Under the pieces are notes generated by a model. The model was not told where the DNA came from. It did not search any database and was given only the letters and a program-made list of their open reading frames with translations. Below are positions 51,805 to 58,290 of a stretch of 64,000 nt of DNA, piece by piece (positions within the stretch are counted from its first letter, which is position 1; each line of letters opens with the position of its first letter). The position numbers were made by a program, and so were the translations under genes. The stretch comes from Escherichia coli (GTDB lineage: Bacteria > Pseudomonadota > Gammaproteobacteria > Enterobacterales > Enterobacteriaceae), in NCBI RefSeq assembly GCF_003790525.1, contig NZ_CP033635.1; one strand, given 5' to 3'.

Positions 51805-52008
51805 ATGTTTGGTAACTTAGGACAGGCAAAAAAATATCTCGGCCAGGCGGCGAAGATGTTGATTGGCATTCCAGACTACGACAACTACGTCGAGCATATG
51901 AAGACCAACCATCCCGACAAGCCGTACATGAGCTATGAAGAATTCTTCCGCGAACGCCAGAACGCGCGCTACGGCGGCGATGGTAAAGGCGGTATGCGCT
52001 GTTGTTAA
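51805..52008 (+). CDS. yjiX: Small protein YjiX (YbdD/YjiX family, DUF466)
   Basis: 67-aa [61 protein letters not shown]. Confidence 0.85.
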
Positions 52009-52018
52009 TGGAGAGAGC

Positions 52019-52975
52019 ATGAACCCGATTGCAGTTACCCTACTCACCGGTTTTTTAGGCGCGGGCAAAACCACCCTGCTGCGCCATATTCTTAATGAAC
52101 AGCACGGCTACAAAATTGCCGTGATTGAAAACGAATTCGGCGAAGTCTCCGTTGATGATCAACTGATTGGCGATCGCGCCACGCAGATCAAAACGCTGAC
52201 CAACGGCTGCATCTGTTGTTCGCGCTCCAACGAGCTGGAGGACGCGCTACTCGACCTGCTGGATAATCTCGACAAGGGCAATATTCAGTTCGACCGTCTG
52301 GTCATTGAATGCACAGGCATGGCCGATCCCGGCCCGATTATTCAGACCTTTTTCTCCCATGAGATTTTATGCCAGCGTTACCTGCTGGACGGCGTGATTG
52401 CGCTGGTGGATGCGGTACATGCCGATGAGCAGATGAACCAGTTCACCATCGCCCAGTCACAGGTTGGCTACGCCGACCGTATTCTGCTGACTAAAACCGA
52501 CGTCGCAGGTGAAGCAGAAAAACTGCGCGAACGCCTGGCACGCATCAACGCCCGCGCACCGGTCTACACCGTCACCCACGGCGACATCGACCTGGGCCTG
52601 TTGTTCAACACCAACGGTTTTATGCTGGAAGAAAACGTCGTCAGCACCAAACCGCGTTTCCACTTTATCGCGGATAAACAAAACGATATTTCGTCGATTG
52701 TGGTGGAACTGGATTACCCGGTAGATATCAGCGAAGTTTCCCGCGTGATGGAAAACCTGCTGCTGGAATCGGCGGATAAACTGCTGCGTTACAAAGGGAT
52801 GCTGTGGATTGACGGCGAACCTAACCGCCTGCTGTTCCAGGGTGTCCAGCGCCTCTACAGCGCCGACTGGGACAGGCCATGGGGCGATGAAAAACCGCAT
52901 AGCACGATGGTGTTTATCGGGATTCAGCTGCCGGAGGAAGAGATTCGGGCGGCGTTTGCGGGGTTAAGGAAGTAA
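52019..52975 (+). CDS. yjiA: CobW/HypB-family GTPase YjiA
   Basis: ORF track 51935..52975; conserved start MNPIAVTLLTGFLGAGKTTLLRHIL (P-loop) and CxCC motif GCICCS. Confidence 0.9.
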   Translation: MNPIAVTLLTGFLGAGKTTLLRHILNEQHGYKIAVIENEFGEVSVDDQLIGDRATQIKTLTNGCICCSRSNELEDALLDLLDNLDKGNIQFDRLVIECTGMADPGPIIQTFFSHEILCQRYLLDGVIALVDAVHADEQMNQFTIAQSQVGYADRILLTKTDVAGEAEKLRERLARINARAPVYTVTHGDIDLGLLFNTNGFMLEENVVSTKPRFHFIADKQNDISSIVVELDYPVDISEVSRVMENLLLESADKLLRYKGMLWIDGEPNRLLFQGVQRLYSADWDRPWGDEKPHSTMVFIGIQLPEEEIRAAFAGLRK

Positions 52976-53305: not shown

Positions 53306-55156
53306 ATGGCAACAATAATCCCAACAATCAGTAGCTGCAACGATAAAATTACTGCCGGAGAGAAAAGGCTGGCAAGAATTCTGGAAAGAGGACTAGGCGA
53401 AGAGTGCTGCTGTTGGTATGACATTCCCACGGGTGATAAGCATCTTCACCCAGATTTTATGATACTTTCGCCAGAAAAAGGCATTATTTTTCTCGAGGTA
53501 AAAGATTGGTTTATTACAAAAATAAAAAAAGCCAACAAGTCTAATGTGTTGTATGAGACACAAAATGGTATTCAATCTTTAAAGAATCCGATAGAACAAG
53601 TTAGGCGATATGCTTTCGAAGCTGTAAACCAGTTAAAAAAAGACCCCCTATTGTGCCAACAGGATGATCGTTACAATGGCAATCTTCTTTTCCCCTATGG
53701 ATATGGCGTCTACTTTAGTAATATTACACGAGAAGCATTAAATAATAAATTTACTCAAGAAGAGCTGCTCGGGATCTTCCCATCAGATCTCATCATCTGC
53801 AAAGACGAAATAAATGAATTCATGTCAAAAGAGGATGTTTCATCCAAAATACATTCGTTGATTAAATATGACTTCAAATGTCATGCTACACAAGAACAGT
53901 TGAACAGGATTAGATGGCACTTATACCCCGATGTCAGAATAGAAAGGGAAAAGAGAAGTAAAAACCGTGATGAATTTAGTGTCGATGCACCAACCATCAT
54001 TTCTATCCTGGATACTCAACAGGAACAACTTGCCAGAAGTATGAGAGATGGCCACCGGATCATTCATGGTGTTGCAGGTTCAGGGAAGACATTGATCCTC
54101 TATCATCGCTGTCAGGAATTAGCGAAAAAAAATGACAGCGAAAAGCCAATTCTTGTCATTTGCTACAATATTACTTTAGCCAAAAAACTTCGGTCGATGT
54201 TCATCAATCATCCCTTTGCAGAGAAAATAAAGGTTAAAAATTTTCATGCTTGGTGTTTCCAACAAATTAAAGAAAACAAGATCACTATTCCAGAAGGGGA
54301 TAATATTTTTGAAAATATGGAGCTAGCGTTGACTGATGGTTTCAAGACAGGAAAAATAAAACCAGAACAATACAGCGCTGTATTAATTGATGAAGGACAT
54401 GATTTTAAGCCAGAATGGTTAAAAATCCTGGCAAAAATGACTGACTCTCAGGACGAGAATTTGCTATTCCTTTATGATGATGCTCAGTCAATTTACCAAA
54501 AAAAGAAAGCATTAGACTTTACACTGTCCAGCGTAGATATTAAAGCGACAGGACGCACAACCATTCTTAATATAAATTATAGAAACACACAGCAAATCCT
54601 ACACTTTGCCAGTTGCATTGCATTTAATTATCTTAATAGCCATATCGATAGTTCTTTAACCTATCATAAACCTGCTGCGGGAGGAATGAATGGCGATTAT
54701 CCCAACCTTGAACATTTCGACACACAGGACGAAGAAATAGCACGAGCAGTCGAATGGATTACAGAGCAAAATGAACAAGGGATTCCGTGGTCTGAAATTG
54801 CTATACTAAGTCCATCAACTCACACCCTTTCTAACTCTCTAAGCTCTGTACTTGAATCGAAAAACATCCCCTTTAATCTTATTGTAAGCTCTGCAGATAA
54901 AAAGTCCTGGACGCCAGAACAAGAGCGTATTTCTGTTATGCCATTACCCAGCAGTAAAGGACTTGAGTTTCACTCAGTTGTCATTATTGATGCAGCGAGA
55001 ACACGGGATAATAGCGATGATTTGAGTGAGGATATAAAGAGACTCTATGTAGGTTTTACCCGAGCACGTTGCAATCTCTTGGTAACCTTGCACGGTGAAG
55101 GTGCGTTAAATGAGCATCTACTAAAAACCTATGAGCAAAGCCCACAATATATGTAA
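53306..55156 (+). CDS. NERD (PD-(D/E)xK-like nuclease) domain fused to SF1 UvrD-like helicase/ATPase, 616 aa; candidate single-gene defence protein
   Basis: N-terminal HPDFMILSPEKGIIFLEVKDW (D..E.K nuclease-like core); Walker A GVAGSGKT (aa 255-262), Walker B LIDEGHDF, motif VI-like VGFTRAR; gene is low-GC and sits where K-12 has mrr-hsdRMS. Confidence 0.8.
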   Translation: MATIIPTISSCNDKITAGEKRLARILERGLGEECCCWYDIPTGDKHLHPDFMILSPEKGIIFLEVKDWFITKIKKANKSNVLYETQNGIQSLKNPIEQVRRYAFEAVNQLKKDPLLCQQDDRYNGNLLFPYGYGVYFSNITREALNNKFTQEELLGIFPSDLIICKDEINEFMSKEDVSSKIHSLIKYDFKCHATQEQLNRIRWHLYPDVRIEREKRSKNRDEFSVDAPTIISILDTQQEQLARSMRDGHRIIHGVAGSGKTLILYHRCQELAKKNDSEKPILVICYNITLAKKLRSMFINHPFAEKIKVKNFHAWCFQQIKENKITIPEGDNIFENMELALTDGFKTGKIKPEQYSAVLIDEGHDFKPEWLKILAKMTDSQDENLLFLYDDAQSIYQKKKALDFTLSSVDIKATGRTTILNINYRNTQQILHFASCIAFNYLNSHIDSSLTYHKPAAGGMNGDYPNLEHFDTQDEEIARAVEWITEQNEQGIPWSEIAILSPSTHTLSNSLSSVLESKNIPFNLIVSSADKKSWTPEQERISVMPLPSSKGLEFHSVVIIDAARTRDNSDDLSEDIKRLYVGFTRARCNLLVTLHGEGALNEHLLKTYEQSPQYM

Positions 55157-55206: not shown

Positions 55207-55288
55207 GAATGTATATCTAAGATATTAGTCACGCCTGATAGCCGCTACCAAAAACGCCATCATCTCCCTCTCATCTTTGCTGTGATAA

Positions 55289-55594
55289 AAGCGTACCATT
55301 TTGCTGTTAAATTCCAGCGCTTTAGCCACTGGAATTAACAAGTTCAAACTTCCGACAACGAAGTTCCAGTTATTACAAAAATTACTGGCAAAAGAGATGA
55401 AAAGCGTAGTTGACAACACATCGAAATATACTGACTGGAGTAAACGCGATGATATTAAAGCGAAACTGAAAGTTGAACTTATTCTGCTTCTACACAAGCA
55501 TAAGTTCCCGCCAGTAGCGAATGATGATGTTTATATGGGTGTGCTGGCACAGGCAGAGAATTTTAAAGAACATCATATGAGTGCTTTAAATTAA
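55289..55594 (+). pseudogene. Possible 3' remnant of a type I restriction enzyme R-subunit (HsdR C-terminal region)
   Basis: Frame opens only at 55289 after a stop, no upstream coding partner; product ...TDWSKRDDIKAKLKVELILLLHKHKFPPVANDDVYMGVLAQAENFKEH resembles the conserved HsdR C-terminal YPP-containing motif as recalled. Confidence 0.4.
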
Positions 55595-55713
55595 TTATGA
55601 AGGCCGGATACACTTTGTTATCCGGCCATTGTGAATTAACGTTAATTTCTCTTCCAGATATTTCCAGTAACGCTTTTATTATTTTCTATTTTTAGCTGGA
55701 CTTTCCCTGTATT

Positions 55714-55733
55714 TACTGATGATATGTCCAGGT
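55714..55733. promoter_or_regulatory. LexA (SOS) box upstream of symE
   Basis: TACTGATGATATGTCCAGGT contains CTG-N10-CAG with AT-rich spacer about 80 bp upstream of symE start. Confidence 0.5.
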
Positions 55734-55749
55734 ATTTAGCGCGGTGCGA

Positions 55750-55830
55750 ATGTGCGCCAACACACCCGCACCGCTCATCACAATCACTATTTATGGAGAA
55801 TAGTAATCATGACTGACACGCATTCTATTG
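55750..55830 (-). ncRNA. symR: Expected position of SymR antisense sRNA overlapping the symE 5' end (approximate)
   Basis: Placed by established knowledge that SymR is transcribed antisense across the symE RBS and start codon; ends not determined from sequence. Confidence 0.35.
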
Positions 55831-56150
55831 CACAACCGTTCGAAGCAGAAGTCTCCCCGGCAAATAACCGTCAATTAACCGTGAGTTATGCGAGTCGCTA
55901 CCCGGATTACAGCCGTATTCCCGCCATCACCCTGAAAGGTCAGTGGCTGGAAACCGCCGGTTTTGCTACCGGCACGGCGGTAGATGTCAAAGTGATGGAA
56001 GGCTGTATTGTCCTCACCGCCCAACCACCCACCGCCGAAGAGAGCGAACTGATGCAGTCACTGCGCCAGGTGTGCAAGCTGTCAGCGCGTAAACAAAAGC
56101 AGGTGCGGGAATTTATTGGGGTGATTGCCGGTAAACAGAAAGTCGCCTGA
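55809..56150 (+). CDS. symE: SOS-induced type I toxin SymE (YjiW), AbrB/MazE-fold endoribonuclease-like
   Basis: ORF track 55752..56150; conserved start [48 protein letters not shown]. Confidence 0.9.
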
Positions 56151-56196
56151 TACATTGACCCGGTAGCGCCAGTGCTACCGGGTATTATTCGCCGTG

Positions 56197-58290
56197 TTAG
56201 ACCAACGCGCTCTCCATCTGTTTTTCAAATGCCTGACGAATTAATCCCATAACGTAAGGAAGTTGTGCGAGGTCGCTGAAACCAATTTCCACATCACCAT
56301 TGCCCCAGCGCCCAACATTTGTCACATCTTTGGCAATACCTTTCGGATCGACCAGTTCATGAAACTGCATATTAAGCGACAATCGCAGTCGGCTTTTTTG
56401 CGGCACAACATCAACAAAATTCGTTTCCGCTTTAAACGCAATATAGAGCTTCAATACTTCCTGCGTGATCCCTGCGTCCAGGCGCATAACTTCATCGCGA
56501 AGATGATCAAATAACACCCGGCTATGCGAACCATCAGCAAGAAAAGGATAATCACTCAGGCTATAACTGGTTTTGTTTTCAGGCTGCGCCCGATAAACAG
56601 CTAAAACCTCTTCAGGAAGAGCAGGCGCTTGCCAGACCTGAACCGCGAGATCGGCCAGACGATCGGCACGGGCGCGAATGGCGGCTTCATCCCATTTTTC
56701 GCACTGTCCAAGACCGATATTCAAATAAAGCGGGCTATGCTTAAAGCCGTCTTCAATATCGCGTTTTTCCGCGAAAGGTCTGTCACTGTAGCGGGAGTTA
56801 TAGCGCGTTAATGTGAGATTCCCCAACGTATGTAACAGTTCTTTATGCACACGCTGCCAGTCGCTTCCCAGCTCTTCACGCCATTTAGCCGACAAATTTT
56901 CGTTCTGCGGCATAATATGCTCAATCGTAAACTCTTCCACGCGCTCTCTGCGTTTATCGTTTTCCAGTCGTCGTAACCAGTAGCTGCGACTGCGGAAGTT
57001 ATAGAGATCGCGAACTTTTAATTCCCGTTTAAATTCATCATCGTTGGGGAAACGACGATATGAAGGCAGATTCAGAAAATGTACCTGAATACTTTCCAGA
57101 TATTTTTCTTTAATAATGACCTTATAAAAGGTAGCAAACGTCTTGTTAAGAGAATTTGTCGGAATCGCACATACTGCACGGCGGAAAACATAAGATTCAA
57201 TTAAACGAATTATGCTCAGGAAATCTTCGTGAGGCAAATCGCCATTTTTATAGTCATGATAAAGCGCCAGTAAGAAAGGATACGCCACATCGACCTTTAA
57301 CTCGCGCAAATCCTGAAAAGCCGTAGCAAGCGATTTGTCACTTTCTTTACCCAATGCCATTGCACAGTAATACTCCGCGTAGATGTGAATATCTTCAACC
57401 AGGTGATCCACGCCTTTTTCAGCAACACTCTGGCTGCGGGCATGGAGTTTAAATGCCTCATAGACTTCATCTGTACGAGGGATCTCCCCCGTTTTTACCG
57501 TCAGATAATGACGCATAAAGCTGTCAAAATATTCGCTGTAACCTTGCTGACCAAAAGCGACTTCCATTGGACGCCAGTGATCTTCATACAACCGGGTTTG
57601 ATGCTCTGGTTCGAGACCCATCAGAATAAAATTGCGCACCAGATCGGCCTGACTTAACGCCTTACCGGTAGAGTTCATACTTTCAAAAATCAGTTGCGGA
57701 TTATCCTGACCACGATTAAGCGCCACATCGACAATTAATAATTTTGCTAACCCACGACATAAGGGGATCAAGTCATCACCGAGTTTGGCAATTTGCTCAT
57801 CAAAGAAAGTAAAGTTTTCCATTATTCGATGGGAATAGTTTTCTGGCATTGGTCTTTGTTTTATTAACGCCAGCAAACTGTCTTTATCAGTCTCGGTCAG
57901 CAGTAATTTAAATCCTTTCTCGCCGGACTCATAAGGATTGAGTAAATAATAATTACGCAATTTCATTGCTGAAAAGCCATCAAAAACTTCGTCTTCGCCA
58001 AGATGACGCGATAAAGCCTCAATCAGCAACATTGCGGTCGTCAGCCTTTGTTGACCATCAATGACCAGTAACGGAGAAATACCAGAAACCTGATACAACC
58101 CCTGCTCAATATAAACAACCGAACCGATAAAATGCGCTGATATATCGTCACGCTTTCCGGCACGAATGATGTCGTCCCAAAGTTGCCGACATTGTTGTTC
58201 TGTCCATGAATAAGTCCGTTGATAAATGGGAATCACAAACTGCTGCGAACGTTTTAAAAAATCGAGTAGGCGGGCTTCTGTAGCTTTCAT
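56197..58290 (-). CDS. DUF262 (ParB-like NTPase) + DUF1524 (His-Me finger nuclease) fusion, GmrSD-family putative type IV modification-dependent restriction endonuclease
   Basis: 697-aa ORF with N-terminal VIDGQQRLTT (DGQQR motif) and C-terminal EFTIEHIMPQN...H..LGNLTL nuclease motif; convergent with symE, in the slot where K-12 has mcrBC. Confidence 0.78.
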   Translation of the reverse strand: MKATEARLLDFLKRSQQFVIPIYQRTYSWTEQQCRQLWDDIIRAGKRDDISAHFIGSVVYIEQGLYQVSGISPLLVIDGQQRLTTAMLLIEALSRHLGEDEVFDGFSAMKLRNYYLLNPYESGEKGFKLLLTETDKDSLLALIKQRPMPENYSHRIMENFTFFDEQIAKLGDDLIPLCRGLAKLLIVDVALNRGQDNPQLIFESMNSTGKALSQADLVRNFILMGLEPEHQTRLYEDHWRPMEVAFGQQGYSEYFDSFMRHYLTVKTGEIPRTDEVYEAFKLHARSQSVAEKGVDHLVEDIHIYAEYYCAMALGKESDKSLATAFQDLRELKVDVAYPFLLALYHDYKNGDLPHEDFLSIIRLIESYVFRRAVCAIPTNSLNKTFATFYKVIIKEKYLESIQVHFLNLPSYRRFPNDDEFKRELKVRDLYNFRSRSYWLRRLENDKRRERVEEFTIEHIMPQNENLSAKWREELGSDWQRVHKELLHTLGNLTLTRYNSRYSDRPFAEKRDIEDGFKHSPLYLNIGLGQCEKWDEAAIRARADRLADLAVQVWQAPALPEEVLAVYRAQPENKTSYSLSDYPFLADGSHSRVLFDHLRDEVMRLDAGITQEVLKLYIAFKAETNFVDVVPQKSRLRLSLNMQFHELVDPKGIAKDVTNVGRWGNGDVEIGFSDLAQLPYVMGLIRQAFEKQMESALV

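Follow-up and report, generated by a model that had tools for sequence, protein, structure and literature searches.

The symE-SymR locus is very probably a constant companion of type I restriction operons and a patch of shared homology, rather than an anchor of the defense hotspot in which it sits. Because symE always follows an hsd operon or the remnant of one, and because it is missing from about half of the genomes, it is best regarded as a companion of type I operons; the true anchors of the hotspot are yjiA and yjiS/yjiR/mdtM/yjiN. The locus studied here, in a window of 64,000 nucleotides of Escherichia coli DNA (the whole stretch that was analyzed), is the known symE-symR locus inside the immigration control region (defense hotspot 36, yjiA-yjiN). 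According to the explanation proposed here, symE would be the constant 3' neighbor of type I hsd operons of whichever family (IA, IB or ID). Since the module around symE is the only homologous stretch common to otherwise unrelated restriction haplotypes, it could serve as a passive patch for homologous crossovers, and crossovers in it would let the hsd slot on the left and the slot on the right (a type IV enzyme or nothing) reassort. The anatomy of the locus, its distribution, the boundaries of homology, the reassortment of cargo and the mosaicism of the module are matters of direct observation; that the crossovers occur within the module is what sequence comparison suggests.

The gene order in the window is btsT, yjiX, yjiA, a NERD/UvrD gene, an HsdR fragment, symE, GmrSD, yjiS, yjiR, rpn, mdtM and yjiN, and the 601 bases around symE are a 100% match by BLAST to NC_010498.1 (E. 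coli SMS-3-5). The interval from yjiA to yjiN/mdtM, with variable restriction genes inside it, is that of the immigration control region or hotspot 36, of which 20 loci were compared. The relevant features are:

51935-52975: yjiA.
53306-55156, + strand: gene for a 616-aa protein with NERD and UvrD-type helicase domains (Pfam NERD, UvrD-helicase, UvrD_C).
55384-55594, + strand: 3' remnant of a type ID hsdR, 211 bp, the last ~69 codons (Pfam T1RH-like_C; C-terminus of PADLOC REase_I).
55596-55685, + strand: type ID-specific 3' flank of hsdR, with the hairpin GGCCGGATA...TATCCGGCC.
55686-56126, + strand: conserved symE module, ~440 bp (441 bp), the sole stretch common to all restriction-bearing versions of the locus.
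55714-55733, + strand: predicted LexA box, the 20-mer TACTGATGATATGTCCAGGT, occupying the alignment columns of the box in K-12.
55738-55814, - strand: SymR antisense RNA, 77 nt, a full-length match to Rfam RF01809 that spans the symE 5' UTR and start codon.
55809-56150, + strand: symE, an intact open reading frame of 113 aa with a Pfam match, named symE by RefSeq.
55823-55828, - strand: probable -10 hexamer of SymR, TAGAAT (ATTCTA on the + strand), inside the symE coding sequence.
56197-58290, - strand: fused GmrSD type IV restriction gene, a 697-aa open frame convergent with symE, in the position of mcrBC in K-12.

In K-12, SymE is a small DNA-binding protein of the AbrB fold that is toxic when overproduced; LexA, acting through a site at the symE promoter, represses its transcription, SymR represses the stability and translation of its mRNA, and Lon degrades the protein (PMC1891008). 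[quoted passage not shown] The first-pass annotation, which was made from the letters alone, had described symE as an intact gene of 113 aa, and the product of 55809-56150 indeed matches Pfam SymE_toxin (PF08845, AbrB-like) at 74.8 bits against a cut-off of 29 and has 94% amino-acid identity to K-12 SymE; it is thus a SymE_toxin-domain protein of the ~113 aa expected of a symE-symR locus. The annotation had also pointed to the opposite strand as the place for SymR and its promoter. A cis-antisense SymR lies there, over the 5' UTR and start codon of symE, with a score of 92.8 bits (the gathering score of RF01809 is 61). Its two-hairpin fold is retained in an alignment covering six genera, where changes on both arms of hairpin 2 preserve pairing. 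The candidate -10 lies 8 nt upstream of the SymR 5' end, and its ATTCTA (+ strand) is invariant in 14 aligned sequences. In a simple sigma-70 and terminator scan of 55550-56250, no promoter was called for either symE or SymR.

Two variations within SymR were observed. The loop of its 3' hairpin (window 55755-55760) has two orientations among the alleles, CGCCAA or TTGGCG on the + strand; the flip is an inversion between the stem arms, seen across loci L003, L008, L009 and L010, and the inverted form is common to ST131-type (ID) alleles and one divergent IA allele. In the symE 5' UTR (window 55796-55808), three substitutions (TAATC vs CAGTT) are located in stem 1 of SymR, where two exchange A-U and G-U pairs and the third closes a C-A mismatch; this variant is common to strains differing in left cargo.

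The LexA box requires more caution. The annotation had noted a LexA-like CTG-N10-CAG sequence upstream of symE, and this pattern is no evidence by itself, because the window holds 28 copies against 13.4 expected. TACTG-N10-CAG is rarer, with 5 copies in the window, and an A/T-rich spacer is found only in the copy upstream of symE. The credibility of the box was judged instead by alignment to the K-12 box and by conservation across genera, and on these grounds the annotation was right: the predicted box, with its core motif CTGATGATATGTCCAG at 55716-55731, aligns column for column with the box of K-12 symE (yjiW), TACTGATGATATATACAGGT. In a comparison covering six genera, 11 of 13 sequences preserve both half-sites around a variable 10-base spacer; CTG and CAG are retained in E. 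coli, Salmonella, Serratia, Pantoea and Citrobacter, and the Kosakonia copies have TTG for CTG. At the level of sequence, then, the symE promoter has its TACTG-N10-CAGGT box, which presumably still binds LexA.

Compared with K-12 symE-symR (yjiW/RyjC), the window has the same gene, the same 77-nt two-hairpin antisense RNA, the same position of the LexA box and an unchanged orientation behind a type I operon, all in the same chromosomal region. The differences are small in the module itself (two spacer positions of the LexA box, ATGTCC in the window and ATATAC in K-12, and three substitutions in the symE 5' UTR/SymR stem 1) and large outside it. The K-12 order is yjiA, mrr, hsdRMS (type IA), symE, mcrB, mcrC, and the K-12 neighbors of symE, hsdS(IA) and mcrBC, contrast with the type ID hsdR remnant, NERD/UvrD gene and GmrSD of the window. 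The annotation's statement that the K-12 restriction genes are replaced on both sides was therefore correct, with NERD/UvrD and the type ID hsdR remnant on the left and GmrSD on the right.

On the left, the gene at 53306-55156 corresponds to PADLOC C3a187 "NERD+UvrD" (E=1.3e-140) and is called "3'-5' exonuclease" by RefSeq; it is a candidate defense gene in the place of the type I operon. The block formed by this gene and the hsdR remnant was found in 100 of 5426 genomes at ≥80% coverage. (The block occurs in at least two lineages with diverged symE alleles.) In strain BHD6, which carries it, the symE module is 94.7% identical to that of the window. PGAP calls the remnant a pseudogene "missing N-terminus", and its sequence is 94-99% identical to the 3' end of the intact type ID hsdR of ~980 other genomes. 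The adjoining flank, 55596-55685, is near-identical in strains 51489 and JJ1886, which bear type ID, and cannot be aligned with the flanks of IA and IB. Read-through from hsd into symE was considered as a possibility; in an alignment of 13 loci, the ID and IA flanks have hairpins behind the stop codon of hsd. Between the NERD/UvrD gene and the remnant, window 55235-55335 is a 90% match to DNA under a Fic family protein annotation in another E. coli genome (H136).

On the right, the GmrSD gene matches Pfam GmrSD_N, GmrSD_C and DUF5655 and has PADLOC matches. RefSeq splits the frame into a 387-aa CDS and an N-terminal "DUF262 pseudogene", as it also does in O157 SS17, AH65, BHD6 and KE47; this split is probably an annotation artifact.

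How constant is symE in the species? Counts were made over 5426 complete E. coli genomes, using for the junctions queries of 201 bases, each running from a class-specific left flank into the first part of the module. yjiA was found in 5382 genomes, yjiR in 3759 and the symE module in 2872. symE is thus present in 53% of genomes and missing from 47% of those that bear the locus (yjiA+; 2872/5382 have it). At ≥80% coverage, the ID-type left flank was joined to the module in 962 genomes; the IB-type flank was joined to it in 967 and the IA-type flank in 915. Together, these type I hsd-type left flanks account for 2844 genomes, or 99% of those that are symE-positive. The penicillin G acylase gene (pga) was found in 1075 genomes and the brnT-IS1 junction (the "empty site" type of E. 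coli C) in 1113, and most symE-negative loci are one or the other, pga or brnT-IS1 deletion, without restriction cargo. The symE-positive, pga and brnT-IS1 classes add up to 5060 of 5382, leaving ~6% (322) in none of them. The same picture emerged from a systematic sample of 14 loci, taken as every fourth row of evenly spaced yjiA matches (one scheduled K-12-like strain was left out): symE was present in all eight loci with hsd or an hsd remnant and in none of the six without hsd, of which four were brnTA-IS1-mdtM and two pga. E. coli C (ATCC 8739) has a locus of the brnTA-IS1 type.

Truncations of symE are rare, with 1 in 40 evenly spaced matches, in which IS1 had removed everything past ~codon 12. 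In strain LST200A, hsd is intact and an IS1-bounded deletion took the symE coding sequence. The reverse situation, symE intact with hsd lost, is found in SMS-3-5 and BHD6 (whose alleles are 96% identical), in EH08 and in Kosakonia L022. SymE relatives occur in 15 of 72,556 plasmid records, and the four near-identical matches among them come from records of 0.37-4.9 Mb that appear to be chromosomal DNA deposited as plasmids; symE proper is essentially absent from true plasmids.

Within the loci that do carry restriction genes, the module is well defined. Its edges were taken from an alignment of 13 E. coli loci: all classes become alignable from ~55686 (ATTTTTAGCTGGACTTT...) and are 88-98% identical to SMS-3-5 within the module. 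On the right, homology ends at 56126 in alleles where yjiS directly follows (these have another eight-codon tail, ...ISSKTPR), at 56146 in mcrBC strains, and past the stop codon in GmrSD strains. The corresponding BLAST boundaries are at query positions 83/84 and 531/551/599. Beyond these edges the three left classes are unrelated to one another, as are the three right classes. Six left/right combinations of cargo were found: IA with mcrBC, IA with GmrSD (IA hsdRMS in KE47 and UID2309220007), IB with GmrSD, ID with none, ID remnant/NERD-UvrD with GmrSD, and IB remnant with none (EH08, with an IB hsdS remnant to the left and yjiS directly to the right). SMS-3-5 has the ID-type left flank and the GmrSD right flank. 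By evenly spaced matches and junction counts, from which the proportions of left-by-right pairings were taken, the usual pairings IA-mcrBC, IB-GmrSD and ID-none dominate. Since most genomes show a strong linkage between the cargo on the two sides, independent exchange around symE is a minority outcome.

The module is itself variable, with 97 variable sites in 55686-56126. In a four-gamete test on 22 biallelic sites in nine alleles, 142 of 231 pairs of informative sites were incompatible, as might be expected of a mosaic in which crossovers have been resolved, although recurrent mutation could be behind some of the incompatible pairs. A single crossover point for SMS-3-5 was sought inside the module and not located, owing to changes private to this allele and to the strongly mosaic make-up of the module. 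SMS-3-5 would nevertheless be a recombinant that combines an ID left flank with the GmrSD right flank usual with IB; most of its hsd operon would have been lost later, with the NERD/UvrD gene now in its place and 211 bp of hsdR left. symE did not serve as the junction of this left replacement: its breakpoint is within hsdR, ~300 bp farther left, and in both SMS-3-5 and EH08 the change on the left is a deletion/insertion ending inside hsdR or hsdS, with no crossover at the module edge.

What remains, then, of the view of symE as a fixed anchor? The part about its surroundings stands: the edges of the module are sharp, the cargo on both sides reassorts, and the regulatory region is preserved, the symE/SymR/LexA-box module being intact in every restriction-bearing version of the locus that was examined. 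The part about its permanence does not, since an anchor would be there whatever the cargo, and symE, found in 2872 of 5382 loci, is absent at the pga and brnT-IS1 loci. (In E. coli KE47, UID2309220007 and 51489, loci L041, L042 and L017, yjiS, yjiR and mdtM are missing or partial and rpn abuts yjiN; from this erosion of the right flank it follows that the right boundary of the hotspot is not fixed either.)

The linkage to type I operons is not peculiar to E. coli. SymE orthologues with 71-88% identity lie directly after a type I operon in five other genera: Kosakonia (type IA, with mcrBC after symE), Salmonella (types ID, IB and IA), Serratia (type IA, in two different chromosomal contexts), Pantoea (type IA) and Citrobacter (type ID). 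In E. coli and these genera the symE start codon is 214-228 bp past the last hsd gene and co-directional with it, apart from two exceptions to this spacing, Salmonella L030 and Serratia L027, whose called hsdS stops ~350 bp upstream. A homolog on a metagenome contig, at 46% identity, lies 227 bp after an HsdS gene, and SymE-family homologs at 60% and 37% identity have no hsd next to them; for two distant homologs (L037 among them) the contigs were too short to reveal the surroundings of the gene. One Kosakonia contig has an identical SymE without hsd and retains the IA-type left flank. As a separate observation, Kosakonia L022 and L023 have identical SymE and the same integrase and fimbrial genes to the right; one has hsdRMS and mcrBC around symE and the other SMC_N, Lactamase_B, DUF8370 and DUF7480, possibly another defense system.

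If symE so faithfully follows hsd, it could be simple cargo of each type I cassette, its constancy coming from co-transfer rather than residence. This is unlikely on balance, but there is a good deal that fits: symE occurs only where an hsd flank is present, and is absent from the penicillin acylase and IS1-deletion loci; the hsdRMS-symE unit appears in differing chromosomal contexts in Serratia and Kosakonia; and by alignment the family-specific ID and IA left flanks are recognizable between genera. The SymE tree, on the other hand, follows the host. All nine E. coli alleles, whether taken from an IA, IB or ID context, group together and away from the other genera, even though the three operons differ down to their gene order; E. 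coli SymE is 88-96% identical across IA, IB and ID, the divergent IA allele M37H being at 79-88%. In Salmonella, the IA and IB copies likewise cluster together. Such clustering by genus argues against symE having been carried in with each hsd family. Salmonella ID SymE is a partial exception that would suit co-transfer, being as close to Serratia and Citrobacter (80-83%; 83% to Serratia IA) as to other Salmonella (80-85%). Against co-transfer also speak the abrupt end of homology at the module edges, the mosaic module common to all classes and the near absence of symE from plasmids. The synonymous divergence of symE (pS 0.11) is about that of the core gene yjiA (0.10), indicating that symE has been part of the locus for roughly as long as this neighboring core gene. 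Its pN/pS over 11 E. coli alleles is 0.31, compared with 0.04 for yjiA; by this measure constraint on symE is weaker than on yjiA but real.

Why, then, is symE kept beside hsd? The annotation had suggested that symE may function as part of the hotspot, for instance as an SOS-linked backstop to restriction damage. On such a reading, cuts made in the host chromosome by the adjacent type I enzyme, as might follow a loss or change of modification, would set off the SOS response and with it SymE, which would shield or compact the nucleoid or stop the damaged cell. Three unrelated type I families, spread over six genera and more than one chromosomal site, have symE closely linked and co-directional, and this agrees with such a role, as do the LexA half-sites conserved across genera. 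So does the later work cited in a review (Thompson 2022, in PMC11894785), by whose account SymE condenses the nucleoid and binds DNA non-specifically, rather than cleaving RNA; a similar question, "defense or addiction?", was posed for symE of P. aeruginosa cDHS1 (PMC10250203). However, deletion of symER in K-12 left growth and colony counts after mitomycin C unchanged (PMC1891008), symE outlasts hsd in SMS-3-5, BHD6, EH08 and Kosakonia L022, LST200A has retained hsd after IS1 deleted symE, and the more distant SymE homologs lack the linkage to hsd. The knockout without a phenotype, together with the survival of each gene without the other, weakens the idea, and it is as improbable as transport with each cassette. 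A narrower version is a shade less probable still, namely that SymE proper is an SOS-induced, non-specific DNA-coating accessory of enterobacterial type I systems that would limit or resolve self-restriction by the adjacent HsdR. It is similarly doubtful that such an accessory acts as restriction alleviation or damage-triggered arrest, and that selection, and not only shared ancestry, keeps symE 3' of three unrelated hsd families. The least likely suggestion by far, and one already largely refuted, is that symE-SymR is an addiction (post-segregational killing) module that stabilizes restriction cassettes. The locus counts as a type I toxin-antitoxin system, Kawano et al. discuss such modules as selfish elements (PMC1891008), and the idea has been raised for P. 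aeruginosa hotspots (PMC10250203). An addiction module should have a labile antitoxin, an association with plasmids or mobile elements, and a loss that is not tolerated; here SymR is stable and SymE Lon-labile, the reverse of addiction modules (PMC1891008), more than 1100 genomes have an IS1-bounded deletion across the whole symE/SymR interval, hsd has been lost beside an intact symE, and plasmid records contain next to no symE, the near-identical ones apparently being chromosomal. The stable antitoxin, the common IS1 deletions and the absence from plasmids make an addiction role unlikely. The companion and homology patch thus remains the preferred explanation.

Much of this setting has been published. 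SymE genes were found to associate with restriction-modification operons (Kawano, Aravind & Storz 2007, PMC1891008), symE-symR has been listed among the toxin-antitoxin systems of the immigration control region (EcoSal Plus 2025, PMC12707154), and some E. coli have a GmrSD homolog in place of McrBC (PMC12707154). The immigration control region or hotspot 36 of Enterobacteriaceae, as described there, is the same yjiA-yjiN interval, with cassette-like variation of IA/IB/ID, Mrr, McrBC and GmrSD; the presence of symE in 53% of genomes, the hsd-type flank in 99% of these, the module edges, the six combinations and the mosaic structure are not given in that account (PMC12707154). A SymE-family gene likewise recurs amid variable defense cargo in P. 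aeruginosa cDHS1 (Johnson et al. 2023, PMC10250203), compared here by description; it is a distant family member in another genus, and its linkage to type I systems or a LexA box is not shown in that paper. The immigration control region, its cassette variation, the three type I families, the substitution of GmrSD for McrBC and the presence of symE-symR are thus already on record, and the locus in the window is a known and ordinary one to which this analysis adds numbers and boundaries. The symE module is no new kind of system. Sibley & Raleigh (2004), who also dealt with this region, may already have described yjiW as a conserved patch.

The practical consequence is that "anchor" should be corrected to "type I companion and homology patch". 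The gene is a marker of the type I slot and offers a short patch of homology for recombination between restriction haplotypes, and this aids annotation and typing of the locus. If the linkage were functional, SymE, which is without an established physiological role, would gain one, and an SOS-controlled layer would be added to the means by which a cell survives its own type I enzymes.

The flanking core gene is itself divergent. The yjiA of SMS-3-5 has at most 97.9% identity to the yjiA of any other genome, and synonymous divergence of yjiA among 11 strains, ~0.10, is high for an E. coli core gene. Such divergence fits an old description of the immigration control region, which reportedly calls it a bastion of polymorphism.
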